DNA of 64,000 bases from a phage. Where the stretch lies: the sequence record PX880100.1; one strand, given 5' to 3'. The notes beneath the pieces are model-generated. The model was not told where the DNA came from, did not search any database, and was given only the letters and a program-made list of their open reading frames with translations. The stretch's first letter is position 1; every line of letters begins with the position of its first letter. Shown here in pieces: positions 19,965 through 61,193 of the stretch. A program made the position numbers and the translations under genes.

Positions 19965-20156
19965 CAATATTTTACTATAAAGTTCTGTAACATGATCTGA
20001 GTCAAAAAATTTTATTTGCCAATCTCTATTAAAAATTGTATAATCACGCACTCGTGCACGCGATATAAAATGATTATCTAGTATCACACATCTCACGTTA
20101 AAAGCAAGCAAATTTTTTATTTAAATGCAATATCATAGGCTTATTTAAAATTGTAG

Positions 20157-20185
20157 TTGCTTTTTACTGTATATATTGGTATAAT
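20157..20185 (+). promoter_or_regulatory. early promoter for phoH operon (divergent from the nrdD promoter)
   Basis: TTGCTT, 17-bp spacer, TATAAT, then ATATTTGTAAGTTGATAAAC; approximate coordinates. Confidence 0.6.
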
Positions 20186-20258
20186 ATATTTGTAAGTTGA
20201 TAAACAAGATCTTTTTGTTGATCCTCTGTTAGCGAAGTACACTATAGGAGTGTTATTT

Positions 20259-21011
20259 ATGGGAAAAGCACGTCAAAAAAGAGAGAACCGCAATGGTTCA
20301 AGAAAGCGTGGCAACAAGTATGAGAATAACGTAATTCAGGCTGATTTTTCTAATGATTACGCTAACCCAGTTGCTAAATCCCTAGTAGGTAAAAACCGCG
20401 AGCAAAAATCATATATCAATATGATCAAGAACAACACAGTGACTGTGGGTATTGGTGAGCCAGGTACAGGTAAAACCTTTATTCCGTCTGTTCTTGCAGC
20501 TCAGGAACTTGTAGACATTCACTCAGATATTGAGCAAGTGATCCTCGTACGTCCTAATGAACCTCTAGGTAAGTCTCTTGGTATGCTTCCTGGTGATCTA
20601 GCGGAAAAGCTAGAGCCTTGGTTGGAGCCAATAGCTGATGGTATGAAATGGGCCATCGGCGATCATGCATATAAAGGATATGTCGAACGTCAGAAAATTA
20701 AATTTTTGGCTATCGAACATGCTCGTGGCAGAACTTTCAACAACTCCTATGTAATTGTCGACGAAGCTCAGAATATTTCCGTTGAGGCAATGATTTGTCT
20801 CCTAACTCGTGTAGGGCAAGACTGCCGTTTAATTATCTGCGGAGATATAGCTCAGAAAGACATTAAAGGTGACTCAGGTCTAGCACTCCTTATGGAAGTC
20901 TATGAGAAATACGAAAATGCCCCCTTCTCAATGATCGAATTGATTGATAACGTTCGTTCTGTTGAGTCTAAAGCATTCTATGATATTTTTAAAGACATGG
21001 GGAAGGTGTAA
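20259..21011 (+). CDS. phoH: PhoH-like P-loop ATPase
   Basis: Walker A GIGEPGTGKTF; ATG at 20259 with AGGAG RBS (track ORF starts at in-frame GTG 20250). Confidence 0.8.
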   Translation: MGKARQKRENRNGSRKRGNKYENNVIQADFSNDYANPVAKSLVGKNREQKSYINMIKNNTVTVGIGEPGTGKTFIPSVLAAQELVDIHSDIEQVILVRPNEPLGKSLGMLPGDLAEKLEPWLEPIADGMKWAIGDHAYKGYVERQKIKFLAIEHARGRTFNNSYVIVDEAQNISVEAMICLLTRVGQDCRLIICGDIAQKDIKGDSGLALLMEVYEKYENAPFSMIELIDNVRSVESKAFYDIFKDMGKV

Positions 21012-21012
21012 T

Positions 21013-21255
21013 ATGGGAAACGTCGTTCATCTGAGCCGTAAAACTAAAATACATCGTACTTCACTGAGTGCTGCTAATATGATTACACGTAAGGAAGGGG
21101 AAGAAAGTCCTAAGACAACCCTAGCGTGGAAAATTGTAACCTCAAATCCAAATAAACCATTCAATTATAACGAGCTAAGCACCTCTATAGATATTCTATT
21201 AAAAGAAGTAGCTAGAGCTAAAGTAATTGAACAAGCTAAAAAGCTAGACTGGTAA
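21013..21255 (+). CDS. hypothetical protein (80 aa)
   Basis: ATG at 21013 directly after the phoH stop, GGAAGGTG RBS; track lists a longer overlapping frame from 20944. Confidence 0.5.
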   Translation: MGNVVHLSRKTKIHRTSLSAANMITRKEGEESPKTTLAWKIVTSNPNKPFNYNELSTSIDILLKEVARAKVIEQAKKLDW

Positions 21256-21376
21256 TATACAGGGCCTGGGTATGAAAATACTCGGGCCTTTTCTATCAGA
21301 AAATTTTATTTGCCTAATGACCGATAATAAAGTAGAATATTCCTTAAATCCTGATAACTATAAAAAGGAAAGCCAA

Positions 21377-23766: not shown

Positions 23767-24249
23767 ATGGAAGAAAAATACAAAGAAATAGCGGGGTTAT
23801 TTGATTATAATCCAGAAACAGGGATATTTACCCATAAAGCTAGAGAAGATAAATCCTTCAATACTAGATTTGCTGGCAAAGAGGCTGGTTCTCTAGAAAA
23901 ATGCTCTGGATATATTGTAATGCAAGTAAAAGGCACTAAGTATTACGCGCATATCCTAGCATTCCTTATCGTTAATGGGTATATTCCAAAAGAAGTAGAT
24001 CACGATAATAGAATACGGCATGATAACCGAGCTATTAATTTAAAGGCCTCTGACAGACACAGTAATGGTAAAAATGTCGGGGCGCACAAAGATAATAAAT
24101 TAGGTATTAAAAATATTCACCAAAAAGCTAGTGGATCTTACCAGGTACAGATAGCCCGTAAAGGTGTAAAATATACTAAAACATTCAAAGAACTTGAGGA
24201 TGCTATAGAGTGGCGCGATATGAAACTATTGGAGCTTGATAGTTTATAA
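23767..24249 (+). CDS. HNH homing endonuclease-like protein with AP2-like DNA-binding domain
   Basis: 160 aa; HNH-type region EVDHDNRIRHDNRAINL and AP2-like segment GIKNIHQKASGSYQVQIARKGVKYTKTF; free-standing between nrdA and nrdB. Confidence 0.65.
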   Translation: MEEKYKEIAGLFDYNPETGIFTHKAREDKSFNTRFAGKEAGSLEKCSGYIVMQVKGTKYYAHILAFLIVNGYIPKEVDHDNRIRHDNRAINLKASDRHSNGKNVGAHKDNKLGIKNIHQKASGSYQVQIARKGVKYTKTFKELEDAIEWRDMKLLELDSL

Positions 24250-24255
24250 TTTTAC

Positions 24256-24284
24256 TTGCTAATCGCTACCTGATTTGCTATAAT
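24256..24284 (+). promoter_or_regulatory. early promoter upstream of nrdB
   Basis: TTGCTA, 17-bp spacer, TATAAT; approximate coordinates. Confidence 0.55.
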
Positions 24285-24315
24285 ATTCCTGAAATAGTGA
24301 GAAAGAGGAAAATCA

Positions 24316-25461
24316 ATGACTACTTTACTAAACCTGAATTGGGATCATACTAACGCTGATCTTTTCCTGGGCGATTCTCTAGGTATCGCAGATTATGTAC
24401 GTGTAGCACATCCAGAACTAGAACGTCTGGCACTTCTGCAACGCTCTCAATTTTGGACTGAAACTGAAATCAGTCTGGAAGCAGATAAGAAACAATGGCC
24501 CAATCTCCCACGTGAAATCCAGGAAATCACACTCCTGAACTTAGCATGGCAGACTCAAACAGATTCCTTTATCAGTCGTGCTCCTGAAGCAGCTATTATG
24601 CCGCTTGTAAGCCGTCCAGAATTGGAAGGTATGCTCAAGCAGTGGAGCTATTTTGAAGACCTGCATAGTCGTGCTTATAGTAATATTATTCGTAATGTGC
24701 TGACTGATCCAGCAGAATTTATTGATTCTGTAACCAAAAACCAAGAAGCATTCGCACGTATCGCTGATTCTGTTGAGCTGTTCGATGAACTGTACCAGTT
24801 AGGTCAGTATTTCATCGCGGTACGTGATCATCGTGGTGACAATACATATCCAGAAACTGAGTTCCCTGAAGTTAAGCGTGAAACTCAGGCTAAACTGTTA
24901 GATGCTTATTTTGCAATCTACGGTCTGGAAGCAATGCAGTTCTACGCATCCTTTGCATGTACTTTTGCTCTAGCAGAGAACGATATTCTGCAAGGTATTG
25001 CTAAAAATCTGCAATTAATCGCTAAAGATGAGGCTCTGCACACCCAGATGTCTAAAACAATCATCCAGATTATGTTCCAGCAGTTTGACAAAGATCTGGT
25101 AGATGAAGCAGTGGCTAAAGCACCAGCACAGCTCCTGAAAACTCTAAAAACTGAGATTGAATGGGGTCATTTCATTTTCAAAGGTCGTAGTCTGATTGGT
25201 TTGAATGCAGAACTTCTAGAAGAATACTTGTACTTTGTGGGGCGTAATGCATTTATGCACATTGGTGTAGAATGGCCTAGTCACTTACCAGTAATCACTA
25301 AAAACCCTATTCCGTGGATCATGAACTGGTTGGATACTACTTCTCTACAGCCTGCTCCACAAGAAATCCAGATTGGTGCAGCCTACCGTGTAGGTCAGGT
25401 AACTGAGACCTCTACTGATACTCTGGAAGATCTGGGCAATGAATTTGGAGATTTCCTATGA
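24316..25461 (+). CDS. nrdB: ribonucleoside-diphosphate reductase small subunit
   Basis: 381 aa; position after nrdA, iron-ligand-like EALH segment; 4-nt overlap with the DHFR gene. Confidence 0.8.
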   Translation: MTTLLNLNWDHTNADLFLGDSLGIADYVRVAHPELERLALLQRSQFWTETEISLEADKKQWPNLPREIQEITLLNLAWQTQTDSFISRAPEAAIMPLVSRPELEGMLKQWSYFEDLHSRAYSNIIRNVLTDPAEFIDSVTKNQEAFARIADSVELFDELYQLGQYFIAVRDHRGDNTYPETEFPEVKRETQAKLLDAYFAIYGLEAMQFYASFACTFALAENDILQGIAKNLQLIAKDEALHTQMSKTIIQIMFQQFDKDLVDEAVAKAPAQLLKTLKTEIEWGHFIFKGRSLIGLNAELLEEYLYFVGRNAFMHIGVEWPSHLPVITKNPIPWIMNWLDTTSLQPAPQEIQIGAAYRVGQVTETSTDTLEDLGNEFGDFL

Positions 25462-25991: not shown

Positions 25992-26830
25992 TGCAACAAT
26001 ACTTAAAAATTTTGACAGATGTAATTTTACTAGGTGAACCCCGTAATGACCGTACAGGAACAGGCACAGTTTCAATTTTTGATTCCTATGCTAAGTTTGA
26101 CCTACGTGAAGGGTTCCCGGCTGTAACTACTAAACGCCTGGCCTGGAAATCAGTAGTAGGAGAACTCTTATGGTTCCTATCTGGGTCTACAAATCTCCAT
26201 GATCTGCGTGTATTCACATTTGGTCGTGACGAAGGACAGTGGACTATCTGGACCCCAAATTATGAAGACCAAGCTATAAGTATGGGGTATGATAAGGGTA
26301 ACCTAGGACCAGTATATGGTAAACAGTGGCGTAACTTTGGTGGGCGAGATCAGATTCTAGAACTTATTGAAGGACTCAAGAATAATCCTCATGGCCGCAG
26401 ACATCTAGTTTCTGCATGGAACGTAGCTGAACTAGACAAAATGGCGTTACCACCATGTCACTACGGCTTCCAGTGTTATGTAAGTAACGATGGATACCTA
26501 GATCTTAAATGGACACAACGTTCTGTAGATTGTTTCCTCGGTTTACCTTTCAATATTGCTAGTTATGCTTTATTAACGCATATATTAGCAAAACTGACAG
26601 GATTAAAACCTCGTTATCTTATCTTTAGTGGCGGTGATACTCATATCTATAATGACCACATGGAACAGGTAGAAGAACAGGTAAAACGTAAACCTCGTGC
26701 TTTACCTACTCTAGTAATGCCAGAGTTTGTAGATCTTTACGATTTATTAGAAAATAATACGGCAGCTTGGTCATTCCATTTAGAGGGGTATGATCCTCAC
26801 CCAGCTCTTAAAGCTAAGATGTCTTCTTAA
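25991..26830 (+). CDS. thyA: thymidylate synthase
   Basis: 279 aa; catalytic-cysteine motif ALPPCHYGFQCYV. Confidence 0.9.
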   Translation: MQQYLKILTDVILLGEPRNDRTGTGTVSIFDSYAKFDLREGFPAVTTKRLAWKSVVGELLWFLSGSTNLHDLRVFTFGRDEGQWTIWTPNYEDQAISMGYDKGNLGPVYGKQWRNFGGRDQILELIEGLKNNPHGRRHLVSAWNVAELDKMALPPCHYGFQCYVSNDGYLDLKWTQRSVDCFLGLPFNIASYALLTHILAKLTGLKPRYLIFSGGDTHIYNDHMEQVEEQVKRKPRALPTLVMPEFVDLYDLLENNTAAWSFHLEGYDPHPALKAKMSS

Positions 26831-26835: not shown

Positions 26836-26860
26836 ATAGCCCTTCGGGGCTATTATATTT
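26836..26860 (+). terminator. rho-independent terminator after thyA
   Basis: ATAGCCC-TTCG-GGGCTAT hairpin followed by a T-rich tract; approximate. Confidence 0.55.
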
Positions 26861-26869
26861 AAATTTCAT

Positions 26870-26898
26870 TTGCTTACTGAGTGAAATTTAGATATAAT
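26870..26898 (+). promoter_or_regulatory. early promoter
   Basis: TTGCTT, 17-bp spacer, TATAAT; approximate. Confidence 0.55.
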
Positions 26899-26922
26899 AT
26901 ATTTTATAAATCGGAGACAACT

Positions 26923-27177
26923 ATGGGACTCTTTAAAAAGAAAGTTTATTTAACACAAAGTCAAGAACGTAGGTTCTTAGCTCTGTCTCAATATTATCAC
27001 TTACCTTTCGATCATTTTGTAGAACGGGCGTTAGAACAATTCCTAGAAAAGGAATTAAAGGCAATTAGACCTGAACCGCCAAGAGTACCAAATGATGCAC
27101 AGAGAGGTCATCCATGTATTCCTCCTATGCCGCCAATTCCTCCAGCGACTAGGGTAATTATAGAAGGCGAAAACTAA
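26923..27177 (+). CDS. hypothetical protein (84 aa)
   Basis: ATG at 26923 with GGAGA RBS downstream of the promoter; track ORF extends upstream to 26881. Confidence 0.5.
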   Translation: MGLFKKKVYLTQSQERRFLALSQYYHLPFDHFVERALEQFLEKELKAIRPEPPRVPNDAQRGHPCIPPMPPIPPATRVIIEGEN

Positions 27178-27446
27178 TGTCTATTCTTTTATCTGCTTTA
27201 GAAGCAAAACAAAATACTATTGCTGTTATTAAACAGGAAGTACTTAATCTAGAGTCACTTATTGCCGTAGAGATTGATAAAGCAATCAAAGAAAAAGAAT
27301 TTAACTGCCATATTCAGGGATTAACTGAATATTCAGAAAACGCCAGAAACAGCGTTATGCAACGACTCACTAAACTAGGCTATGTCGTAGAAGCTAAGTA
27401 TGAGCAGCGTGAAGGTTTTTGGCTTGAAATTGACTGGAGCAAATAA
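27177..27446 (+). CDS. hypothetical protein (89 aa)
   Basis: Track ORF, start overlapping the upstream stop. Confidence 0.5.
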   Translation: MSILLSALEAKQNTIAVIKQEVLNLESLIAVEIDKAIKEKEFNCHIQGLTEYSENARNSVMQRLTKLGYVVEAKYEQREGFWLEIDWSK

Positions 27447-27922: not shown

Positions 27923-27942
27923 TAAATAAATTAAAAATTTTC

Positions 27943-27971
27943 TTGCTTAAAGCCCTCTAATTTAGTATAAT
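27943..27971 (+). promoter_or_regulatory. early promoter
   Basis: TTGCTT, 17-bp spacer, TATAAT; approximate. Confidence 0.55.
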
Positions 27972-27998
27972 ATTCGTATTGAAAGTGAGGAGGGCTTT

Positions 27999-28277: not shown

Positions 28278-28293
28278 TTTTTAAAAAATTCAT

Positions 28294-28322
28294 TTGCTAA
28301 ACGCTTCAAATTCTCGTATAAT
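28294..28322 (+). promoter_or_regulatory. PN25-type early promoter
   Basis: TTGCTA, 17-bp spacer, TATAAT, then ATACTTCATAAATTGATAAAC; approximate. Confidence 0.6.
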
Positions 28323-28360
28323 ATACTTCATAAATTGATAAACAAAAAGGAAAACAAATA

Positions 28361-29461: not shown

Positions 29462-30163
29462 ATGAAAGTAAAACCATTTGGTATGCTAGATATTGAATCT
29501 CTGGGAACTCCAGGAGATTGTGGTACTACTCATATCGCAATGCCTTCTTTCGCTTTTGTGGCTATGCATGGAATTGATAAAGACCCTGATCTAATATTTG
29601 TTACTTTGGATGTACAAGATCAGCTTAATTCTGGTGCCAAAGTTACAGCATCTACTCTAGCATTCTGGATGGATCAAGCTAAAAATAGCCCGTCTGCTAT
29701 CCACATTATGGAAGCTATGAAGGAACGTAATCCAAAACTGATTGCCTTCCAAAATGGTAAACATCATTGCACTAATAAACTCGGCTCTAACTATGCTGCC
29801 TACTCTATGGCTAAAAATATTATGGAGTTGGCTTTAGGCGAAAATGCTTTGTATTATGGCAACGGTCCAGAGTTTGATATGACTATCTACTCTGCAAACA
29901 CGTTCCATGCTGGAACCAATGAAGAGGTAGTTCCGTGGAAATTCTGGAATTTGGGTAATGTTCGATCTCTTCGTAACCTCTGGATGCAAGCTGGATACAG
30001 TTATAAAGCTCTAGAGACCGAAGGTATTAGCTGGGCAATAGCTAAAATGGAGAAGATGGACACCATTCGTTATGGGATCTATCCGGTTAAGCACGACCCA
30101 GCATTTGATGCCTTAGTTGAAAGCTATTGTGTTGCAGCTATGATCGAAAAAATGAAAATTTGA
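29462..30163 (+). CDS. putative DEDDh-type 3'-5' exonuclease
   Basis: 233 aa; N-terminal FGMLDIESLG (exo motif I-like D-x-E) and C-terminal YPVKHDPAFDALVE (H-x4-D motif III-like); tentative. Confidence 0.4.
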   Translation: MKVKPFGMLDIESLGTPGDCGTTHIAMPSFAFVAMHGIDKDPDLIFVTLDVQDQLNSGAKVTASTLAFWMDQAKNSPSAIHIMEAMKERNPKLIAFQNGKHHCTNKLGSNYAAYSMAKNIMELALGENALYYGNGPEFDMTIYSANTFHAGTNEEVVPWKFWNLGNVRSLRNLWMQAGYSYKALETEGISWAIAKMEKMDTIRYGIYPVKHDPAFDALVESYCVAAMIEKMKI

Positions 30164-30164
30164 T

Positions 30165-30193
30165 TTGCTTCCGGCCCCAAAATTCTGTATAAT
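30165..30193 (+). promoter_or_regulatory. PN25-type early promoter
   Basis: TTGCTT, 17-bp spacer, TATAAT, then ATATTCATAAATTTGAGAAAAC; approximate. Confidence 0.6.
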
Positions 30194-30233
30194 ATATTCA
30201 TAAATTTGAGAAAACAACAAAAGGAAAACAAAT

Positions 30234-31107: not shown

Positions 31108-31490
31108 TAATTTAAAAGCTAGTAAATCGGTAGACGAAAGCCCAAGCATCTTACCTCGCAGCAGCGGTTGAAATACGAGGTTAAATAAGACCGCTGACCA
31201 TACTATAAAGTATAATCTATTGGAGATTATGTTTATTACACCAGCCTTTTAAGCTGACACGTAAGAACAAAGCGTCGTTGATATTACCGACACAACTTCA
31301 AAGATCAACATTTAAGTATGAAAGCTGAAAAGTTTAAAGAACTCAAACTTCTAAACTTCTAAAGCTAAAAGATGCAAAGTATTCGTTGATGATTCAAACC
31401 CTAGATCAAAGGTACATGGCTCATAAGATATGGCCTGTGGCGCCTCTAGGCTGTTTATCGGTTTACTAGTTTCACAATTTAAAAATGTAT

Positions 31491-31519
31491 TTGCTAATTT
31501 ATTAAGTTATCTGTATAAT
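31491..31519 (+). promoter_or_regulatory. early promoter
   Basis: TTGCTA, 17-bp spacer, TATAAT; approximate. Confidence 0.55.
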
Positions 31520-31549
31520 ATATTTTTAAATTGATGAAACGAGGCTATT

Positions 31550-31872: not shown

Positions 31873-32322
31873 ATGAAGGCAGCTTTGCTTTTAGTAGCTG
31901 CCCTTACCTTCAGCTTTAGTAGTCAGGCATCGCACGATGCAAAAGAAATAGATTGCATTGCTAAAAATATCTATTTCGAAAGTCGTGGTGAGGGCATAAA
32001 GGGAATGACGGCGATTGCACATGTTACTAAAAACCGTGTAAACTCCGGTAAATTCCCAGATTCCTACTGTAAAGTAGTATATCAGTCTAACCAGTTCTCT
32101 TGGGTATCTAAGAGACCAAAAGTTGATAAAACTGATGAGGCTTGGCAAACCGCTAAGAATTTAGCTAGAGTGATATACTACGTTGATTTACCACAAGATC
32201 CTACATATGGAGCACTTTACTTCCATAGTGGTAAAGATAAACCTTACTGGACAAAGAAGTTTAAGAAAACAACTAAGATTAAGGGACATACGTTTTATAA
32301 ACCTGTTGTCACTAAAACTTAA
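31873..32322 (+). CDS. secreted SleB/CwlJ-like cell-wall hydrolase
   Basis: ATG at 31873 with GGAG RBS; signal peptide MKAALLLVAALTFSFSSQA; conserved segment IAKNIYFESRGEGIKGMTAIAHVTKNRVNSGKFPDSYCKVVYQSNQFSW. Confidence 0.6.
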   Translation: MKAALLLVAALTFSFSSQASHDAKEIDCIAKNIYFESRGEGIKGMTAIAHVTKNRVNSGKFPDSYCKVVYQSNQFSWVSKRPKVDKTDEAWQTAKNLARVIYYVDLPQDPTYGALYFHSGKDKPYWTKKFKKTTKIKGHTFYKPVVTKT

Positions 32323-32330
32323 AAATTTAC

Positions 32331-32359
32331 TTGCTTAAATACTTAAATTTCCGTATAAT
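32331..32359 (+). promoter_or_regulatory. early promoter
   Basis: TTGCTT, 17-bp spacer, TATAAT; approximate. Confidence 0.55.
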
Positions 32360-32390
32360 ACTTCCATAAATTAATGAGAGGAAGCGAAAT

Positions 32391-32561: not shown

Positions 32562-33004
32562 TGGAAGAGAATATTTTAGATGTTTTGCGTAGAGCTTTGC
32601 AGGATTCTAAGTTTAATGGTTCTGATAAAGAAGTCGCTAAAAGCTATCAGACCATAATCGGGGATCTTCAGCGTATTGATAAAGATTTCATCACTTCTGA
32701 ACAATTTGTGTCTTATCTCAAAGCTCAACTAAAAAGCATTAACCAGATGAAAGCTAAACTTCATGGTCAAGATCTTGATAGTTATAGCTTGCAGTCCGCT
32801 CAGTATGAATACATTCTAAATAAGTGGTTGCAGGAGTATCTGCCTCCTCAGTTATCTGATACTGAGATTCGTAAATACTTTGCAGAATTAGTTAAGCTAA
32901 ACCCTGGAATTACAAAAGGTATGCTGATGAAAGCGATTAAGGAAGAATTTCCTGGGCGTTATGATGGTGGTACTGCTGCTCAGATTGCTGGCGAATTTAA
33001 TTAA
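32561..33004 (+). CDS. hypothetical protein (147 aa)
   Basis: Track ORF; translationally coupled to the upstream small ORF. Confidence 0.5.
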   Translation: MEENILDVLRRALQDSKFNGSDKEVAKSYQTIIGDLQRIDKDFITSEQFVSYLKAQLKSINQMKAKLHGQDLDSYSLQSAQYEYILNKWLQEYLPPQLSDTEIRKYFAELVKLNPGITKGMLMKAIKEEFPGRYDGGTAAQIAGEFN

Positions 33005-33012
33005 AAATTTAT

Positions 33013-33041
33013 TTGCTAAATGCTTATAAATTCTGTATAAT
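33013..33041 (+). promoter_or_regulatory. PN25-type early promoter feeding an ORF-free RNA region
   Basis: TTGCTA, 17-bp spacer, TATAAT, ATATTCATAAATTAGAGAAC; no ORF for the next ~800 bp; approximate. Confidence 0.6.
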
Positions 33042-33264
33042 ATATTCATAAATTAGAGAACAGCGAGCCGATTACGCTGAGTGCAGAATCCCAACCGGAG
33101 CGCATTGAATAGAGTCGGTGGGTTAGTTGTAAAACTAGTACACAGGGGGCGGCAATCCCGGTTAGTGGCTAGAACGTGTAAAATGAGGCGTCTGAAACCT
33201 CTCCCCTAAACTCTTCTCTAATTTATAAATAGTGGGGTGTGGAAATCACTTATGTAGTAACACT

Positions 33265-33336
33265 GCCGTCCTAGTATAATTGGTATTATCAAGCCGTAAC
33301 TGGTGGAAGATGTAGGTTCGAATCCTACGGTCGGTA
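33265..33336 (+). ncRNA. tRNA-like element (T-arm and acceptor stem present, anticodon arm not foldable by eye)
   Basis: GTAGG-TTCGAAT-CCTAC T-arm and GCCGTCC/GGTCGGT acceptor pairing (one mismatch); no convincing anticodon stem; possible pseudo-tRNA. Confidence 0.3.
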
Positions 33337-33838
33337 AGAACTGGATAACTGATGCTTTTAACGTAAAAGCTTCCGAGGTTAGTTGCGCACTGCCTAAACC
33401 ACGCGGTAGTTGGTTCCAGACTAACCAACCAGTCTGCTGAATAGTTTTATTACGATTTAACTATGTCCAGGCTAAAGAAGAACTTTAGAAGGTATTCTAG
33501 GATAGTGAAGTTCTTTCTCCACATCGGAGTAGTTTTTCAAGCTATCCACAAAGTGGGAAATGCTGACATGAGAGATGTCACTAATGGTGCACAATAGCAC
33601 AGGTAATTCGCGATAATTCCTGTTGAGTAGCAGCAAAAGGCGGGAAGTCATGACCCCAAGCCTAACCGAGTCCTCAATATACCGCAGGACATAACCACTA
33701 AGTCACCCTGACTTAAACTGGAAAATAATAGACGTTACTGTATTTTGTCTTGAAATACTTAATGAGTGAGACTTATGACTCTCCCGGTATCGTCTGTATT
33801 TTTAAGAGTTTTTACGAGAGTTCTTAAAAATACTTAAA

Positions 33839-34895: not shown

Positions 34896-34919
34896 TACCC
34901 GCATGTAACATCTGAAGTA

Positions 34920-34954
34920 AGCCCTGCGTTTCCTGGAGAGCGCAGGGCTTTTCT
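34920..34954 (+). terminator. rho-independent terminator
   Basis: AGCCCTGCG...CGCAGGGCT hairpin followed by TTTCT; approximate. Confidence 0.6.
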
Positions 34955-34991
34955 ATATAATGTAATTATAAAACTAACTAGGAGATTAAAC

Positions 34992-35510
34992 ATGGGTGTT
35001 GATGAATTAACACAGCATCTTCTATCTAGAGGATTTGATGCAGATAAATATCATTGCTGGTTAAGTCCGGAAGGATGGCTAACAGTCCCGTTGTATGATT
35101 TCTCTGGGATGTTGAGGGGCTATCAAACTTATAATCCTTCTGCTCCAAAAGGTCATGGTAAGTATCCCTTTGAAGCTAAATATTTTACCTATTCTACTAC
35201 CCAGTGTGTATGGGGATTAGAAACTCTCAATGGAGATGAAAAAGTAGTATTGATCGCTGAATCTGTATTTAAGGCAGTTGCGTTACATAACGCTGGTTAT
35301 CCAGCCCTAGCAATGTTGGGTTCTTCTCCAGGAAAAGCGTTATTAAAGCAACTGAAATTATTACCTTTTAAATTGGTAGCTGTCGGGGATAACGATCCTG
35401 CGGGTGAAAAATTTGCTAGAAAATTAAACGGCTTTGTTTCTCCTGTAGATGTGGATGAGATGTCTACCGAAAACTTGAAAAATTTTCTTGCTATGAAGCT
35501 AAATTTCTAA
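34992..35510 (+). CDS. hypothetical protein (172 aa)
   Basis: Track ORF with GGAGA RBS. Confidence 0.5.
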   Translation: MGVDELTQHLLSRGFDADKYHCWLSPEGWLTVPLYDFSGMLRGYQTYNPSAPKGHGKYPFEAKYFTYSTTQCVWGLETLNGDEKVVLIAESVFKAVALHNAGYPALAMLGSSPGKALLKQLKLLPFKLVAVGDNDPAGEKFARKLNGFVSPVDVDEMSTENLKNFLAMKLNF

Positions 35511-35531
35511 TATAATATATCTTATAAATTC

Positions 35532-35620
35532 GGAAGAATAGCATAACGGTATTGCAGCAGATTGCTAATCTGTCGGTTTGAAATATAGCCTTGTGGGTTC
35601 GATTCCCACTTCTTCCGCCA
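35532..35620 (+). tRNA. tRNA-Ser (anticodon GCU), class II
   Basis: Acceptor GGAAGAA/TTCTTCC, 3-bp D-stem, anticodon arm GCAGA-TTGCTAA-TCTGT, long variable arm, T-arm GTGGG-TTCGATT-CCCAC, encoded CCA. Confidence 0.7.
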
Positions 35621-36668: not shown

Positions 36669-36698
36669 CTCCTCCAAATAGAATTTTTAAAAATGTAC

Positions 36699-36728
36699 TT
36701 GCCTTTTGCTTTAAATTTCTGATATAAT
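36699..36728 (+). promoter_or_regulatory. early promoter
   Basis: TTGCCT, 18-bp spacer, TATAAT, then AGTTATATAAATTGATGAAGGAG; approximate. Confidence 0.55.
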
Positions 36729-36758
36729 AGTTATATAAATTGATGAAGGAGTTAACTA

Positions 36759-37034: not shown

Positions 37035-37070
37035 CTAATACAGCACTGAGCAAGTTCTTTAAAATTTGAC

Positions 37071-37099
37071 TTGCTCAGTGCCTTAAAACTTGGTATAAT
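37071..37099 (+). promoter_or_regulatory. early promoter feeding a tRNA block
   Basis: TTGCTC, 17-bp spacer, TATAAT; followed by a 14-bp inverted-repeat leader hairpin and tRNAs; approximate. Confidence 0.5.
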
Positions 37100-37161
37100 A
37101 GTTATCTAATTTGGAAACATATTTAAAAGTGTTTAAACTAGTATTTGAATACTTTTAAATA

Positions 37162-37519: not shown

Positions 37520-37807
37520 TTGAGGGGGCTGCTGATGCATCCTGAAAACTTCTTTATTTACTGCGCTGATAAGTCGCTGAAACGTAGAATTAACAAAGTC
37601 TATCATTATCGTGCTAGTCAACAGCCTTATGTATATGCTTTTGACGGTGATCACATTCCATTAGAACAATTATCTTGTGATTACATGATATTGAAGAACT
37701 TTGACGAGACAAAGATCTCAAGCGTTCATAATCGACAGAATCCCTTAACGTGGAAATATAAGAAGAAAAAGAAAGGCATCAAATTCTTAAAAAATGTAGT
37801 TGCTTAG
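37520..37807 (+). CDS. hypothetical protein (95 aa)
   Basis: Track ORF starting 3 nt after the tRNA; TTG start. Confidence 0.45.
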   Translation: MRGLLMHPENFFIYCADKSLKRRINKVYHYRASQQPYVYAFDGDHIPLEQLSCDYMILKNFDETKISSVHNRQNPLTWKYKKKKKGIKFLKNVVA

Positions 37808-37828
37808 TTTCCAAAAGTTCTGTATAAT
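37800..37828 (+). promoter_or_regulatory. PN25-type early promoter
   Basis: TTGCTT, 17-bp spacer, TATAAT, then AATTACATAAATTGAACTGGAG; approximate. Confidence 0.55.
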
Positions 37829-37857
37829 AATTACATAAATTGAACTGGAGAAGCAAC

Positions 37858-39684: not shown

Positions 39685-39826
39685 AAAGTTTACTTATTAT
39701 GTAGGTTCCGATAGATCGGCGGGTCTATTCTGGCATTTAAGAGAGGTCTCGCAAACTTCTTTGTCAGCCGTGGGGTTGGTAGCCTCCAGGTGGCCTACAC
39801 AATAAGTAAATTTATTAAAAATTCAT

Positions 39827-39855
39827 TTGCTATTTCTCTTAATTATCTGTATAAT
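39827..39855 (+). promoter_or_regulatory. PN25-type early promoter
   Basis: TTGCTA, 17-bp spacer, TATAAT, then ATATTTTATAAAGTGAAGAGAAGG; approximate. Confidence 0.55.
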
Positions 39856-39887
39856 ATATTTTATAAAGTGAAGAGAAGGAAAGCAAA

Positions 39888-40577: not shown

Positions 40578-40937
40578 TTGCAAATGCAATTATCAAGCAA
40601 GATTCAAGGTTATTTCGGTCATGTGACAATGGAGTTCGCTATCTCTAAAGGTTGGGACTTCGAACAAGATTTAGCTGAGTTCTACAAAGATATTGATCTG
40701 AACGTACCGTACATGGGACTTTCTACTGGTCAGGAGATCACAGAAGCCGATGTATTCAAGGCAAGTCAAGGTGAGGTAACACCTAGTTTTGCCGAGTTCT
40801 GGTTAGGCATTACGTTAAAAGAAGATGCACCAGATAGTGGTGTACTAATGTCTAGTATGCACTCTGGAAGTTCCGATTACCTTTTCATTAGCGATGTTAA
40901 GGAAATACAAGAAGTCTGCAAAAATGTACTTGCTTGA
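40578..40937 (+). CDS. hypothetical protein (119 aa)
   Basis: Track ORF (TTG start; in-frame ATG at 40584) with AAGGAATTG RBS. Confidence 0.5.
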   Translation: MQMQLSSKIQGYFGHVTMEFAISKGWDFEQDLAEFYKDIDLNVPYMGLSTGQEITEADVFKASQGEVTPSFAEFWLGITLKEDAPDSGVLMSSMHSGSSDYLFISDVKEIQEVCKNVLA

Positions 40938-40957
40938 TGCTTAATTTCTTGTTATAA
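40929..40957 (+). promoter_or_regulatory. PN25-type early promoter feeding an ORF-free leader and tRNAs
   Basis: TTGCTT, 17-bp spacer, TATAAT, then ATTTATATAAATTGATGAGGAG; approximate. Confidence 0.55.
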
Positions 40958-41195
40958 TATTTATATAAATTGATGAGGAGAAATCCTCATCATAGTTCAC
41001 TAAGGTATTAGCTCGACCTAGGACTGGCTGCCAAAAAGCACGATCCCTACGATTCGGGAGAAGTTCTAGATTGGTCCACTAGATTCAGCGGCAACTGAAT
41101 AGTGTATTGGGTTTGCGAGATGACGTAGTTCCTTCCGCTCTAAGCGAAGGTGCTGTAGTTACGCCGAGCTAATAGCCTTAGTAAACTAAAGAATT

Positions 41196-43063: not shown

Positions 43064-43078
43064 AATTTAAAAATTCAT

Positions 43079-43107
43079 TTGCTTTCTCTCTTATTTCTTG
43101 TTATAAT
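43079..43107 (+). promoter_or_regulatory. PN25-type early promoter
   Basis: TTGCTT, 17-bp spacer, TATAAT, then ATTTATATAAATTAATGAGAGGG; approximate. Confidence 0.55.
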
Positions 43108-43137
43108 ATTTATATAAATTAATGAGAGGGAAGCCAA

Positions 43138-45395: not shown

Positions 45396-45412
45396 ATTCT
45401 GAAATAATTCAT

Positions 45413-45441
45413 TTGCTAAACCTCTCTTTTCTTGCTATAAT
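45413..45441 (+). promoter_or_regulatory. PN25-type early promoter
   Basis: TTGCTA, 17-bp spacer, TATAAT, then ATATTTATAAATTGATGAGAGAGG; approximate. Confidence 0.55.
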
Positions 45442-45471
45442 ATATTTATAAATTGATGAGAGAGGTTTGAA

Positions 45472-46707: not shown

Positions 46708-46988
46708 TTATCTCTCCATTTGCTCTTTGGTTCGTCATTGGATCTATAGTAGCTATTTACAGCTTGGTTGATGATCTGTATATTTCTAAGAATAAAGATG
46801 TAATATTATACGTTATACATAAAACTCGACCGTTAGATCTGCCTCCTCTTGATGATAAAACATTACTCAGATGTGCTAGATCTATGATATTTATTGTGGA
46901 TATTCTTCTAGGCCCAACATCTGTATTTTTCTTTTATAGAAAGACTCGTAATATGAAAAAATTTAAAGCTGAAATGCAGAATACCTAA
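46704..46988 (+). CDS. hypothetical membrane protein (94 aa)
   Basis: Track ORF; hydrophobic N-terminus ISPFALWFVIGSIVAIYSL. Confidence 0.45.
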   Translation: MIISPFALWFVIGSIVAIYSLVDDLYISKNKDVILYVIHKTRPLDLPPLDDKTLLRCARSMIFIVDILLGPTSVFFFYRKTRNMKKFKAEMQNT

Positions 46989-47098
46989 AGAACTCGCGTA
47001 GGACCGAGTTGCGTCACCTGCAGCTGTTACGGATAAGGGAGTCGTGCCCCTTAGTGCGGTAAGTGGTGAGGTGGCTGCTAGCCATAACTGGAGATAAT

Positions 47099-47443: not shown

Positions 47444-47538
47444 GATTGATATTAAAATCAACTTACTAGCAAAAGCAAATAATGACAAAGCCCAGCCTGC
47501 AAAGTTGCGACTGGGCTATTTTTATAATAAAATTTTAG

Positions 47539-47567
47539 TTGCTTAGATGCCCAAACTTTTGTATAAT
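47539..47567 (+). promoter_or_regulatory. early promoter
   Basis: TTGCTT, 17-bp spacer, TATAAT; approximate. Confidence 0.55.
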
Positions 47568-47598
47568 ATGTTTATAGATTGAGGCAAGAGGATTAAAT

Positions 47599-49751: not shown

Positions 49752-50351
49752 ATGACTAATAAAAAAGAAGAAAAGACTAACCTGTTTCACTCCATTCGCC
49801 AATCTAATGAGTATACCTTTTTCTTTGATGAAGAATTAGGCCCGCCGGATGAATACCGTGATTTATCAATGGTACTTATGCAGGCAAATGAGGACGACGA
49901 AATTAATCTGATGATTAATGGCCCAGGTGGTTATGTTGATACTGCTGCACAGTTATCTAACTTAATTGCTAATTGCCGTGGAACAGTTATAGGGCATCTG
50001 GTTGGTCCTAGTGCTTCTGCTTACTGTACAATTTTCCTATCCTGTCATGGATGGGTAGTACATCCACATGCTACGCTAATGGGACACACGTTCTCTGGCG
50101 GATTCTGTGAGAAGGGTCAAGAAATCAAGAAAGCCTATGAATCTTACAACAAGTTCGTAGAAGATATGATGCTAGATGTCTACTATCCGTTCTTCTCAAT
50201 AGACGAAATCGACGAGATGGTAAAAGACAACAAAAATATCTATCTAGATAGCAAAGAAATCCATAAGCGTATTGAAATCTTGGCGAAATATCGATCTGAG
50301 CAGTATAATAAAGCCCAGTTACCTCAATCCGAGGAGTATAACGAAGAGTAA
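49752..50351 (+). CDS. ClpP-like serine peptidase (S14 family-like)
   Basis: 199 aa; INGPGGYVDTAAQ (cf. ClpP INSPGG), GPSASAYCTIF (catalytic Ser context), VVHPH (His). Confidence 0.55.
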   Translation: MTNKKEEKTNLFHSIRQSNEYTFFFDEELGPPDEYRDLSMVLMQANEDDEINLMINGPGGYVDTAAQLSNLIANCRGTVIGHLVGPSASAYCTIFLSCHGWVVHPHATLMGHTFSGGFCEKGQEIKKAYESYNKFVEDMMLDVYYPFFSIDEIDEMVKDNKNIYLDSKEIHKRIEILAKYRSEQYNKAQLPQSEEYNEE

Positions 50352-52068: not shown

Positions 52069-52081
52069 GATAAAAAAGTAG

Positions 52082-52110
52082 TTGACTTTTAGCCCTAGTT
52101 ATTATATAAT
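52082..52110 (+). promoter_or_regulatory. early promoter
   Basis: TTGACT, 17-bp spacer, TATAAT, then ATATACATAAATTAGTTAAGAGAGG; approximate. Confidence 0.55.
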
Positions 52111-52143
52111 ATATACATAAATTAGTTAAGAGAGGTATATATT

Positions 52144-52858: not shown

Positions 52859-52865
52859 TAAACAA

Positions 52866-52896
52866 AGCCTGATCTTAGCGGATCAGGCTTTTATTT
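52866..52896 (+). terminator. rho-independent terminator
   Basis: AGCCTGATC...GATCAGGCT hairpin followed by TTTATTTTAC; approximate. Confidence 0.6.
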
Positions 52897-52899
52897 TAC

Positions 52900-52928
52900 T
52901 TGCTTTTTGCTAAAAATTTTGGTATAAT
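52900..52928 (+). promoter_or_regulatory. early promoter
   Basis: TTGCTT, 17-bp spacer, TATAAT; approximate. Confidence 0.55.
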
Positions 52929-52955
52929 ACTTATATAAATTGATTGGAGGATTAA

Positions 52956-53203: not shown

Positions 53204-54067
53204 ATGAAAAAAGAATTTAATGTACATAAAACTCTAGTAGTGCCAGATGACGCCAACTTGTTTTTCGTCGGTGATATTCATGGATGCAATGATTTGCTAG
53301 AAGATGCACTGAAATTAGCTGGGTATAATAGCAAAAAAGATTGCTTAGTATGTGTTGGTGACTTAATTGACCGAGGCACACAAAACCTACAAGTTTTAGC
53401 CAAATTCCTGTATAATCCACATTTTGTCAGTGTCCGTGGTAATCACGACCAGTTTATGATTGCAGGAGATTGGGCTAATTGGATGTATAACGGTGGTATA
53501 TGGGCTATGGAAGAGCTGGATGCAGACACCATTAAAAATATCGCCGAAGATATGGCTGAAAAAATGCCAGTATTCCTAACTGTTAGACATCGTGGTAAGA
53601 AGTATGGTGTTGTTCATGGTGGTGTACCTTTTACATACAAAGAATGCGGTAATGAGGTAGAAACCCCAGTATGGGATAATCTTATTGCACAAGTAGAAGC
53701 AGCTAAGGAAGACCCACATGACCATCCTGGATACCATATTGAACCATATTTATGGGATCGAGATGTAATCCAAGAAATAGGCTTCTACTTGTCCAAAAAC
53801 GGTGAGGAACATCCGTATTTTCAGCGTTATGCAGGATTTAAAGAAAAATACATGGTAGAAGTGCCCGAAGTTAAAGGGGTAGATTTCGTGTTTCATGGAC
53901 ATACTGGAGTACCTTACCCACTTCTTTATAAAAACCGTGTTTACCTTGATACTGGCGGTGTTTTCAACGGGCAGTTGACGGTTGCGCAAGTTAACGATGA
54001 AACTGGCAAAATCACCACATTTACCACAGACAAAAATAATAGCTGCGGTGTACAGAGGATTCTTTAA
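53204..54067 (+). CDS. Ser/Thr protein phosphatase (calcineurin-like metallophosphoesterase)
   Basis: Motifs GDIHGC, GDLIDRG, GNHD in canonical order; ATG at 53204 (track frame begins at TTG 53192). Confidence 0.8.
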   Translation: MKKEFNVHKTLVVPDDANLFFVGDIHGCNDLLEDALKLAGYNSKKDCLVCVGDLIDRGTQNLQVLAKFLYNPHFVSVRGNHDQFMIAGDWANWMYNGGIWAMEELDADTIKNIAEDMAEKMPVFLTVRHRGKKYGVVHGGVPFTYKECGNEVETPVWDNLIAQVEAAKEDPHDHPGYHIEPYLWDRDVIQEIGFYLSKNGEEHPYFQRYAGFKEKYMVEVPEVKGVDFVFHGHTGVPYPLLYKNRVYLDTGGVFNGQLTVAQVNDETGKITTFTTDKNNSCGVQRIL

Positions 54068-54946: not shown

Positions 54947-55054
54947 GTATATAGCTGAGGCTATTATTAAACGAATCATACAAGCGATAGCAATACTTAT
55001 AATCCTTTGTATTGCTATTGGTACGGGATTAGGCATTTTAATTAAAAGTTTTAT

Positions 55055-55083
55055 TTGCTAAAATGCTTAAGTTTCTGTATAAT
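55055..55083 (+). promoter_or_regulatory. early promoter
   Basis: TTGCTA, 17-bp spacer, TATAAT; approximate. Confidence 0.55.
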
Positions 55084-55113
55084 TACTTTATAAATTGATG
55101 AGAAGGAATCAAA

Positions 55114-55545: not shown

Positions 55546-55562
55546 GTAATTAAAAAATTCAG

Positions 55563-55591
55563 TTGCTTTAAGCCTTAAAATTCTGTATAAT
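55563..55591 (+). promoter_or_regulatory. PN25-type early promoter
   Basis: TTGCTT, 17-bp spacer, TATAAT, then AAGTTCATAAATTAATGAGAGAGG; approximate. Confidence 0.55.
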
Positions 55592-55623
55592 AAGTTCATA
55601 AATTAATGAGAGAGGAAATTCTA

Positions 55624-55875
55624 ATGGAAAACATGACTAAAAACGAAATGGCTAACGTTCTGGCAATTCTCCTCGACATGCAGGGTTTTGAGGGTCAGCT
55701 CATGAAGATGTCTATTCCGGCAATGAAAAAGATGTATGATTCTCTGAATAAGAATGCTATGGCGTTCAACCTCGCAAAACAGGAAGCACGTTTTGCGAAA
55801 GAGCATCAAGCGACTGCCGAACGTCGTGCAGCATCTTTTGAGCGTGAAGTTAAGCAACTGAAAGGTAAGAAATAA
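55624..55875 (+). CDS. hypothetical protein (83 aa)
   Basis: ATG at 55624; track frame begins at 55606. Confidence 0.5.
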   Translation: MENMTKNEMANVLAILLDMQGFEGQLMKMSIPAMKKMYDSLNKNAMAFNLAKQEARFAKEHQATAERRAASFEREVKQLKGKK

Positions 55876-58944: not shown

Positions 58945-59165
58945 CAATTATTTTAGTAATTATGTTATTCATCGTAATACTTGTATCTTTTGCTATTATG
59001 CATAGAGCCAGAGAATTAGCAGAAGATGTAGTAAAATTACGGGGTGAGTTGGCCGCTCTCAAACTACAACGTGAAGCTCTCAAGCTATTCGTAGCTCAAG
59101 GTAGCGTGGAGCATACAGCGGAAGACTTCATCATATATCTCAAACGTTACATGGGAATCAAATAA
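58932..59165 (+). CDS. hypothetical membrane protein (77 aa)
   Basis: Track ORF; N-terminal TM segment. Confidence 0.45.
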   Translation: MEVIAIILVIMLFIVILVSFAIMHRARELAEDVVKLRGELAALKLQREALKLFVAQGSVEHTAEDFIIYLKRYMGIK

Positions 59166-59350
59166 TGGAAACTCTTTTTCTTTTAATGCTCGTAGGTTCA
59201 CTGCTATTAATACTAGCACTTCTGCTAATCTGCAACATTCTTAATAATAAGAATCTAGAGTTAAAGTGTGAGAACCAAATCCTTAACCGTGAACTTAAAC
59301 AATATAATCTAGCAGCCCATAAACTGTTAGACAAACTGGAGAATAAATAA
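59165..59350 (+). CDS. hypothetical membrane protein (61 aa)
   Basis: Track ORF; N-terminal TM segment. Confidence 0.45.
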   Translation: METLFLLMLVGSLLLILALLLICNILNNKNLELKCENQILNRELKQYNLAAHKLLDKLENK

Positions 59351-59964
59351 TGTTTACACAACAACCTATTCAAGTAGTACCAGACCATGAACTGAACACA
59401 TGGGATTATAGCTTTAAAGATTTAACTGCTACTGTACAATTCAAATCTATGAAGCTAACATTTGCACACACTGACCTTAGAGCCTGTAAAGATCTTGAAA
59501 GTAAGCTCGAAGATGCTCGTAAGATTTTTGGCACGGCTCGCATCCCGGCTGATAACCTGATTAATGCACTGATCGATGCAGGGTACAAACTTGTGAAGAC
59601 TGAGGTAAATCGTCCCAGTACCCCAGTGACTATTAGAGATCCGTGGCAATCAGGGCCAATCGCAATGCTAAATAACTCCGATAAAAGATTAATGTCGGAT
59701 ATGCACAATGTTCCTTGTGGGGGTGTGATAAGTAGTACGCAGTCATATAAGTTTGCGGAAGATTACGGCCCATCTGTGCAGTTAAAACATACTCAAGAAG
59801 CTTTTGAATCTGATATACGAAGCGCAGCACCTGCGGATGCTGGAGTTTCTAGGAGTTCTGTTTGTACTACTCATTTTAATAATCCTAGTAAACATGGAAG
59901 TTTAGAGGATGCTATTATGGAGGCGTTAGGAGCTGCTCTTAATGAAGATAAGAGAGGTAATTAA
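59350..59964 (+). CDS. hypothetical protein (204 aa)
   Basis: Track ORF, start overlapping upstream stop. Confidence 0.5.
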   Translation: MFTQQPIQVVPDHELNTWDYSFKDLTATVQFKSMKLTFAHTDLRACKDLESKLEDARKIFGTARIPADNLINALIDAGYKLVKTEVNRPSTPVTIRDPWQSGPIAMLNNSDKRLMSDMHNVPCGGVISSTQSYKFAEDYGPSVQLKHTQEAFESDIRSAAPADAGVSRSSVCTTHFNNPSKHGSLEDAIMEALGAALNEDKRGN

Positions 59965-60854
59965 TGGGATTTTATAGTAATAGAAAACCAAAAGGTGTAA
60001 CTGGTAAATTCGCAGTTGAAGAAAGACCTTTTCCACCAGTAGATGTAGAGAAACTACGTGAACTTCTAGAAATGCTAGAAGGTTGCCATGAACGTTGTTA
60101 TTCTGAACTCTCTTTAAATGAGAAACGTGTTGTTGAGATGTTCTGTATTCGTTCAGCTAGAACAGCTAAAGGTACTTCTCCAAAAGATGAAGTAAAAGAA
60201 TACAGAGTTCTAGTGATGCATGCTTGGGCACAACGTTTTGCAGTTCATTCACTTCAGGAATGGTTTAATCTTCCAGCATATAAAGATTTCCATGTTTATG
60301 AAGATGAAGTTATGAATTATAATGAGTTGTATGGTTTGTCTTTCAAAAAGACAGGCTCACCGATGCATGATGCACTCAATTCATTCCCTGATCATTACCT
60401 TCCAGTTCGTGAATACAGAGATCGTGAAGGAAATAAACCCTGCTTCACTATTTGGAACAAGTCTAAGACGATATCTGATCTAGATAATTATTGGTTCCGC
60501 ACAAAAGAAGGATTCCTAGGAACAGAGCCTTTACCTAAGGATCTCAAACCTATCCTTCCGCCTGCGAAACCTAAGCATGAAGTAACGATTGCTATTAATA
60601 GAATAATTCTAGGAGCAGATGATCTTACTAAACAAATCGCCGCAGTTATCGCAGTTCTATTTGATGGTACAAATTCTTCTGCACGTTATGAGAAGCTAAC
60701 AGGTAACAAATTGCAGATACCTAACGAGTTATATGAGAGTTCGTGCAAGATCTATGATAATTTTAGTAAAGTAGATTACCCCGTGAGGTCCATCAAAGAA
60801 CTCATGGAGTATGCGGAGATGGGGATGAAAGGAAATCTCATGTTCGATGAATAA
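59964..60854 (+). CDS. hypothetical protein (296 aa)
   Basis: Track ORF; last rightward gene before the repeat region. Confidence 0.5.
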   Translation: MGFYSNRKPKGVTGKFAVEERPFPPVDVEKLRELLEMLEGCHERCYSELSLNEKRVVEMFCIRSARTAKGTSPKDEVKEYRVLVMHAWAQRFAVHSLQEWFNLPAYKDFHVYEDEVMNYNELYGLSFKKTGSPMHDALNSFPDHYLPVREYRDREGNKPCFTIWNKSKTISDLDNYWFRTKEGFLGTEPLPKDLKPILPPAKPKHEVTIAINRIILGADDLTKQIAAVIAVLFDGTNSSARYEKLTGNKLQIPNELYESSCKIYDNFSKVDYPVRSIKELMEYAEMGMKGNLMFDE

Positions 60855-60861
60855 ACTCTAC

Positions 60862-60890
60862 TTGACGTTATGATTTCTGCATGTTATAAT
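60862..60890 (+). promoter_or_regulatory. promoter directed into the ORF-free repeat region
   Basis: TTGACG, 17-bp spacer, TATAAT; no ORF downstream; approximate. Confidence 0.45.
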
Positions 60891-61193
60891 AACTCTATGA
60901 AATAACATAGAATAAAGAGATCCACCCGGATACGGATAGTGGATGGGAAACTTCTATTTCCCCCGTAGCTTGTCGGAGGGCTAGGGAAATCTTAAGAAGT
61001 TTTGTACCATCTCACGCAATTCGTATCCCAGGGGTGGAGCATCTCTTCCAATCTTTGGGGGATCTTATATTTAAATTAAAGGTAAAACTTTTGACCACAT
61101 AATTTACATTCAAGATGATACACTTGTTGCCACCGCTCTTCCTAGGATGGCACGACACTTTCTAGTAGACTCCTAAGTTTCTAGGAAAATCCT

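Follow-up and report, generated by a model that had tools for sequence, protein, structure and literature searches.

Why should a phage repeat a short promoter-like module more than twenty times, and why should the likeness among the copies run on past the point at which transcription would begin? The questions are raised by record PX880100.1, 64,000 nucleotides of phage DNA (the window, in what follows, is this whole stretch), in which an earlier note, made from the letters alone, had described recurring, near-identical modules of the type of PN25, an early promoter of phage T5, each heading a small-gene or tRNA operon and each apparently under selection in its transcribed part as well. We place 29 modules in the window and consider it about 95% probable that they are host sigma-70 promoters belonging to the early class of a T5-like phage, with a very short leader attached to each. 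This set of very strong promoters is already known, from the annotation of the T5 reference genome and from descriptions of several relatives, and it is the conserved initial transcribed sequence (ITS) that admits more than one explanation.

Census and anatomy of the module

The exact pattern TTGCT-N16-18-TATAAT occurs 24 times in the whole window, where 0.45 occurrences are expected and 100 shuffles gave at most two. The spacer is 17 bp in all 24, as the earlier note had it. A position weight matrix (PWM) made from these matches, spanning −48 to +18, returns 29 sites at a cut-off of 12 bits; 28 of them score 28–68 bits, and the site upstream of the DNA polymerase gene, 3585(−), is weak at 15.4 bits (module coordinates of this kind give the first T of TATAAT). 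None of 20 Markov shuffles yielded a site above 12 bits with the same matrix, the maximum being 7.4. The five sites outside the exact pattern carry one substitution in the −35 element or an 18-bp spacer. The family also emerges from a repeat search that uses no pattern, as its top families (D1–D4, together with D9, D11 and D14 on the minus strand). All 21 positions listed earlier are recovered, the degenerate ones at 36699 (TTGCCT, 18-bp spacer), 52082 (TTGACT) and 11193(−) (TTGCAT) included, and eight modules are added, at 3585(−), 7589(−), 10172(−), 14741(−), 20180, 24279, 35511 and 37094. The copies lie 0.4–4.5 kb apart.

Numbered from the start site of PN25, in which TATAATAGATTCAT represents −12 to +2 (PMC7472727), the module is about 66 bp long and its conservation is confined to functional positions. 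Information peaks at A −45 to −42, T −40, A −37, TTGCT −35 to −31, TATAATA −12 to −6, T −3, T −1 and ATAAATT +1 to +7 (strongest at +2 to +7), after which a purine-rich zone reaches about +17. A occupies −45 to −42 in 20–23 of 24 modules and T occupies −40 in all 24; AAAA or AAAT lies within −48 to −36 in 26 of the 29, and the rest follow terminator T-tracts. The discriminator fits an ATATT consensus (A at −6 in 23 of 24, T at −5 in 17, T at −3 in 20, T at −1 in 18), and a −10 element TATAAT with TTGCT(T/A) at 17–18 bp is the arrangement that marks the T5 early class. Mean pairwise identity among the paralogous copies, segment by segment, is as follows.

Upstream of −49: 0.29
UP tract: 0.65
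−35 hexamer: 0.84
Spacer: 0.42
−10 hexamer: 1.00
Discriminator: 0.58
+1 to +9: 0.61
+10 to +18: 0.40
Beyond +19: 0.25–0.29 (background)

Compared with one reference copy, the others are 60–81% identical over 62 nt, so that the likeness lies at the level of the consensus and 'near-identical' overstates it. Nor are several copies almost identical to PN25 itself, as had been proposed: only 11198(−) is, matching authentic PN25 at 58/68 positions overall and at 32/32 over −12 to +20, whereas the others match at 34–49 of the 68.

The conserved transcribed part lay outside the search pattern and was thus not selected by it. ATAAATT is found 41 times on both strands of the window, 18 of them starting at the predicted +1 of a module, where 0.002 would be expected per module; ATAAATT or TAAATT stands at the predicted +1 in 18–19 of the 29 modules (0.002–0.005 expected per module). 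Over +1 to +20, C makes up 4.8% against a background of 17.5% and purines 71%, and the first C comes at a median of +19.5 rather than the expected position of about 3.6. This C-poor, purine-rich composition resembles the native N25 ITS, which supports fast escape. The leaders are also less folded than random sense 40-mers (−3.1 versus −4.9 kcal/mol, p = 2e-4). They match their own shuffles (mean z = −0.29), which rules out selection on leader structure; the weak folding is due to composition and involves no specific structure.

Two modules, 17966(−) and 52923(+), come directly after terminator hairpins and carry a T-tract, GCTTTTATTTT, in place of the A-tract, so that their UP-like region is T-rich and not A-rich.

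Genes, T5 counterparts and relatives

DNA-level comparison with annotated phage genomes identifies the window as the early region of a T5-like phage (Demerecviridae). A megablast search with window positions 26–34 kb matched 460 phage records, T5-like without exception; across all 8 kb of the query, identity is 96.8% in the top matches, Salmonella phage SIA3lw and Escherichia phages Baret and mar004NP2. The window and phage T5 (AY543070) are collinear but oppositely oriented, the match running from about position 74.6 kb of T5 down to 7.6 kb with 81–97% identity per segment, and the window therefore spans almost the whole early region and the inner end of the left terminal repeat. Its G+C content is 36–43% throughout, with strand switches in GC skew near 20 kb and near 60 kb, and 24 tRNA genes are clustered at 33.8–43.9 kb. 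An Rfam scan of the window returned tRNAs only and no other family.

All 29 modules coincide with promoter features annotated in the T5 reference, with matching downstream genes. Orthology was assigned by BLAST of each module with 250 nt on either side, and the −10 element falls inside the annotated T5 promoter in 24 modules by full-span alignment and in five by partial alignment. The same window-derived matrix finds 31 sites above 15 bits in T5 (1–85 kb). The modules are listed below (coordinates, strand, identity; ORF, open reading frame; RBS, ribosome-binding site).

3554..3621, minus: weak module (TTGCTG, 18-bp spacer, ITS GTAAGTT; 15.4 bits) upstream of the DNA polymerase gene, 66/66 identical to T5 promoter 70987-71061
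7558..7625, minus: module 7589(−), ortholog of T5 P-K28a, upstream of ligB (257 aa)
8924..8991, minus: ortholog of T5 promoter 65284-65358 (ligA)
10141..10208, minus: module 10172(−), ortholog of T5 P-N26, upstream of D3
11167..11234, minus: module 11198(−), ortholog of T5 P-N25, upstream of D2 (234 aa); −35 element TTGCAT
14710..14777, minus: module 14741(−) (−35 element TTGCAG), ortholog of T5 promoter 58999-59073; origin-binding protein gene, long leader
17935..18002, minus: module 17966(−), ortholog of T5 promoter 55708-55782; overlaps the nrdD terminator T-tract
20144..20211, plus: module 20180, ortholog of T5 promoter 53638-53712, upstream of phoH; first plus-strand unit of the divergent control region
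24243..24310, plus: module 24279, ortholog of T5 promoter 50061-50135, upstream of nrdB
26857..26924, plus: ortholog of T5 promoter 46937-47011; RNase H gene about 500 bp further on
27930..27997, plus: ortholog of T5 promoter 46337-46411 (T5.090)
28281..28348, plus: module 28317, ortholog of T5 P-H207 (66/66 identical), upstream of a 171-aa ORF (T5.089)
30152..30219, plus: ortholog of T5 promoter 44393-44467
31478..31545, plus: ortholog of T5 promoter 43067-43141
32318..32385, plus: module 32354, ortholog of T5 P-D/E33
33000..33067, plus: module 33036, ortholog of T5 P16-17; heads a non-coding stretch of about 790 nt (T5 'RNAX') and tRNA-Arg; ATAAATT without RBS
35475..35542, plus: module 35511, ortholog of T5 P15b; tRNA-Ser(GCU) about 9 nt after the predicted +1
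36687..36754, plus: module 36723 (TTGCCT, 18-bp spacer), ortholog of T5 P15c
37058..37125, plus: module 37094 (TTGCTC; weak ITS match CTAATTT), ortholog of T5 P14a; heads tRNA-Tyr/Glu/Trp/Phe
37787..37854, plus: module 37823, ortholog of T5 P14b; small ORFs, then tRNA-Cys/Asn
39814..39881, plus: module 39850, ortholog of T5 P13a; 52-aa ORF, then tRNA-Pro/Met
40917..40984, plus: module 40953, ortholog of T5 P13b; non-coding stretch (T5 RNA2H), then tRNA-Ala/Leu
43066..43133, plus: module 43102, ortholog of T5 P11; 97-aa ORF, then tRNA-Ile/Met
45400..45467, plus: ortholog of T5 promoter 26722-26796
47526..47593, plus: ortholog of T5 promoter 24443-24517
52069..52136, plus: module with −35 element TTGACT, ortholog of T5 promoter 19368-19442
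52887..52954, plus: module 52923, ortholog of T5 promoter 18550-18624; a terminator hairpin with a 12-bp stem (52864-52891) immediately before it, T-tract replacing the A-tract
55042..55109, plus: module 55078, ortholog of T5 P-F30
55550..55617, plus: module 55586, with the highest matrix score (67.9 bits), ortholog of T5 promoter 16245-16319

Every module is co-oriented with the genes around it (29/29), the seven left of 20.1 kb all lying on the minus strand and the 22 right of 20.1 kb all on the plus strand. In most of them the leader from +1 to the ATG measures 18–34 nt and includes a Shine-Dalgarno sequence, usually GAGAGG about 8 nt before the ATG. Four modules (33036, 35511, 37094 and 40953) head RNA units, and three of these, 33036, 35511 and 40953, keep ATAAATT in spite of having no RBS; at 35511 the leader before tRNA-Ser(GCU) is essentially the conserved ITS alone. 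The modules thus do stand directly upstream of small genes or of tRNA and stable-RNA units, as the earlier note held, but that each of them heads an operon is borne out only in part. Only a minority of junctions have a predicted strong hairpin terminator, examples being those at 34919, 50360, 52864 and 57960, and many modules are therefore probably internal booster promoters in read-through units rather than the heads of isolated operons.

The window modules share with the T5 early promoters the A-tract at −43, TTGCTw, the 17-bp spacer, TATAAT, the ATATT discriminator and the ATAAATT start, while the window ortholog of PN25 differs from its T5 counterpart in having TTGCAT at −35. T5-annotated promoters that fall outside the module pattern also have equivalents at the expected window sites, namely P-K28b, the nrdD promoter, the holin promoter and the T5.023-internal promoter (about 58594). 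T5 P12 is absent from the window together with its genes. At the site of T5 P15a (window 34919-34990) a terminator hairpin with a 13-bp stem (AAGCCCTGCG...CGCAGGGCTT) replaces the upstream half of the promoter and is followed by a TATAAT that lacks a T5-type −35 element or UP tract, and P15a was apparently lost or remodelled here. The window also has DNA that is extra relative to T5, about 200 bp with a 66-aa ORF at 8728-8928, between module 8924..8991 and ligA, and about 500 bp with ORFs of 84 and 89 aa at 26907-27405, between a module and the RNase H gene. Conversely, T5 carries the homing endonuclease gene hegH between its counterpart of promoter 24279 and nrdB, where the window has none.

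The module is not restricted to close relatives of T5. Klebsiella T5-like phages match the PN25 region over about 37–51 nt only, that is, over the module itself, the flanks being beyond megablast detection. Klebsiella phage vB_Kpn_B01 (Sugarlandvirus) has 18 co-oriented matrix sites in 40 kb, with shuffles never above −2.2 bits, and their consensus is AAAAATTCA-TTGCnA-17-TATAAT-AGTTTn-ATAAATTnA. With 18 sites that share the ATAAATT start, the module, its transcribed part included, is a family-wide feature.

Much of this has precedents. The T5 early promoters PN25, PN26, PH207, PK28a, PD/E33, P11–P16-17 and PF30 were characterised by the Bujard laboratory, and Gentz and Bujard reportedly noted in 1985 that T5 promoters resemble one another at −43 and also downstream of +1. 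Measurements of how the PN25 ITS affects promoter escape go back to 1986. For the T5-like phage AKFV33, Niu et al. (2012, PMC3326045) described 32 promoters in which TTGCTw and TATAATA are 17–18 bp apart, AAAAATT lies at −43 and TAAATT lies at +1; this is a different isolate with the same consensus as the window modules, and nothing of substance differs. All known T5 early promoters have the ATATT discriminator, and several T5 promoters have been detected in vivo by primer extension (Klimuk et al. 2020, PMC7472727). In the BF23 record, predicted early promoters are marked at corresponding positions (PMC10644984). The scientific value of the present set is accordingly small, in that it confirms a T5-like early region whose promoters match the T5 reference almost one to one. 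Its use lies in annotation, since 29 promoters are placed to the base, whereas the public records of most relatives have no promoters annotated or only those that software predicts, and since one can read from it which promoters of T5 have been kept, altered or lost. It also offers an example of a strong promoter conserved well into its transcribed part, a lesson known from publications since the 1980s. PN25 is a standard model of promoter escape and a workhorse of expression vectors.

What the conserved transcribed part may serve

On the precedent of T5 and PN25, transcription from the modules would depend on sigma-70, begin at the A of ATAAATT, 7 nt after TATAAT, and take place early in infection. 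By the same analogy, the A-tract at about −46 to −41 may act as an UP element for the alpha C-terminal domains, and such strong upstream contacts would recruit the polymerase very efficiently. The conserved, C-poor ITS could then allow the polymerase to break these contacts and escape fast, and would at the same time provide an unstructured leader for translation. Scattered along both divergent arms in the orientation of their genes, the copies could give high and near-simultaneous expression of many small early genes as well as of the replication genes and the tRNA cluster. Strong bacterial promoters of the UP-dependent rrnB P1 type share with the modules an A/T-rich block upstream of −35, which would raise the recruitment of polymerase, and near-consensus hexamers. 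At rrn P1 promoters the discriminator is GC-rich and open complexes are short-lived. The T5 modules are unlike them in their AT-rich discriminator, and would be limited at escape and not by open-complex stability (PMC12464699).

A role of the ITS in escape has been measured for N25: the native ITS gives fast escape, an anti-ITS yields about one-tenth of the productive RNA, and no C appears in N25 until +30 (PMC12464699). An effect of more than 10-fold in vivo is attributed to Kammerer et al., as quoted in PMC5961368, and purine content correlates with productive yield (PMC5961368). The proposal that the transcribed part is itself under selection is supported by the retention of ATAAATT both in Sugarlandvirus and at modules that have no RBS, and it agrees with these experiments.

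Several observations sit less comfortably with early sigma-70 promoters optimised for escape. A generic sigma-70 scan (TTGACA/TATAAT) of the window finds no excess, with 52 sites against 53.5 expected and 53 against 61.8. It misses the family because TTGCTT matches TTGACA at only 3/6 positions, and the signal is thus specific to the T5-type −35 variant. Relative to T5, the modules are 96.0% identical and their mostly coding flanks 92.0% and 93.4%, so that module conservation exceeds that of the flanks only modestly. The predicted start sites and the early timing rest, for this phage, on orthology. Finally, a YG motif with G at +6 to +9 is reported to slow escape or cause initiation pausing at other promoters (PMC5961368), and 20 of 28 modules carry such a step, usually as the TG of ATAAATTGA. 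The idea that the ITS avoids YG pause steps is thereby ruled out; the ITS of the modules is not simply 'pause-free', which is curious for promoters supposedly optimised for escape.

It is conceivable that the conservation downstream of −10 reflects translation signals only, that is, a standard 5' untranslated region with an RBS, and not transcription initiation. The purine-rich +10 to +18 segment, in which GAGAGG keeps a constant spacing to the ATG, and the leaders kept unstructured by their composition are what such a view would lead one to expect, and translation signals probably do explain the conservation of +10 to +18. As an account of the whole transcribed part we consider it improbable, since pairwise identity is higher at +1 to +9 (0.61) than in the RBS zone (0.40), and ATAAATT persists at 33036, 35511 and 40953, where there is no RBS; the latter argues that +1 to +9 is selected for transcription and not for translation. 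Published ITS swaps at N25, moreover, shift productive transcription about 10-fold in vitro and, in the work as quoted, in vivo (PMC12464699, PMC5961368). A very different scenario is that the modules are a recently duplicated dispersed repeat, or recombination joints and mobile promoter cassettes that shuffle blocks of genes. The T4-type early promoters with their PeSL cassettes would be the parallel, a set that is likewise numerous, strong, read by the host polymerase and conserved over an extended length, and that lies dispersed among the small early genes of a large virulent phage. The module family is indeed the top dispersed repeat of the window, insertions lie just downstream of promoters (8728-8928, 26907-27405 and, in T5, hegH), and in the one genome pair analysed, window versus T5, seven of the 60 breakpoints in homology lie inside a module or no more than 10 nt from one, where 4.4% would be expected (p = 0.017). 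This enrichment disappears under a null restricted to intergenic DNA (4 of 23 breakpoints, modules making up 19% of the non-coding DNA; p = 0.67), for which reason we reject joints and cassettes; genes seem often to be gained and lost immediately behind promoters, but this cannot be told apart from the same null. Recent duplication is ruled out by the position-specific identity profile, in which spacer (0.42) and flanks (0.25–0.29) are at background or close to it and far below the hexamers (0.84–1.00), and the copies have neither terminal inverted repeats nor target duplications. The T4 cassettes themselves have another consensus, whereas the T5-type modules lack a consistent stem-loop and any breakpoint enrichment beyond that of their intergenic location. 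We regard this family of explanations as very unlikely indeed.

The reading as early promoters with an escape-optimised ITS leaves room for a further role of the same bases. Perhaps the block from −6 to +9 is mainly a class-specific signal that a phage protein such as gpT5.026 uses to shut the early promoters at the early-to-late switch. What chiefly sets early T5 promoters apart from late ones is the discriminator, all early ones having ATATT, and gpT5.026 weakens binding of RNA polymerase to the −12/+2 N25 strand about 8-fold while its loss raises early transcripts (PMC7472727); the block is also conserved across genera. Yet the effect of gpT5.026 on transcription in vitro is at most 2-fold and the switch occurs without it (PMC7472727), the window contains no late promoters for comparison, and the escape function of the ITS was demonstrated in the absence of any phage factor (PMC12464699). 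We therefore hold this as a doubtful though not far-fetched main function, one that is compatible with the escape-optimised promoters favoured here and no alternative to them. Action of gpT5.026 through the discriminator was itself proposed as a hypothesis by Klimuk et al. (PMC7472727), which covers part of the idea. In its wider form, the AT-x-T-x-T / ATAAATT signature would serve to silence the whole early class at once by way of gpT5.026 and still-undefined switch proteins, a tentative extension that we think rather unlikely.

Other features of the early region

The two early arms diverge from a control region at 19900-20260 that holds three promoters within about 300 bp: the equivalent of the minus-strand nrdD promoter and, in tandem on the plus strand, a site at 20016-20044 and the module at 20144-20211. 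The former of these two, TTGCCA-17-TATAAT, is the equivalent of T5 promoter 53776-53850.

Between the P16-17-type promoter and tRNA-Arg, about 790 nt (33048-33838) contain no convincing ORF. The stretch corresponds to T5 'RNAX', a stable RNA; its first 30 or so nucleotides are nearly identical in a Klebsiella Sugarlandvirus (L004, about 23329), and it includes a tRNA-like element at 33265-33336 (Rfam tRNA, 35.5 bits). Directly after tRNA-Ser, Rfam finds a further tRNA-like sequence at 35627-35701 (38.2 bits) that ARAGORN missed and that is probably the equivalent of T5 tRNA-Ile2(CAU). At 41531-41564 and 42555-42588 there are ends resembling a T-arm and acceptor, with CCA-like tails and no called tRNA, which may be degenerate tRNA genes.

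Towards the end of the window, the ORF-poor segments 61362-61937 and 61969-62148 carry at least eight copies of the motif GTCGGATTTGCACA and a 104-nt tandem duplication. This repeat-bearing stretch (61362-62148) corresponds to the injection stop signal (iss) region of T5, at the inner end of the left terminal repeat.

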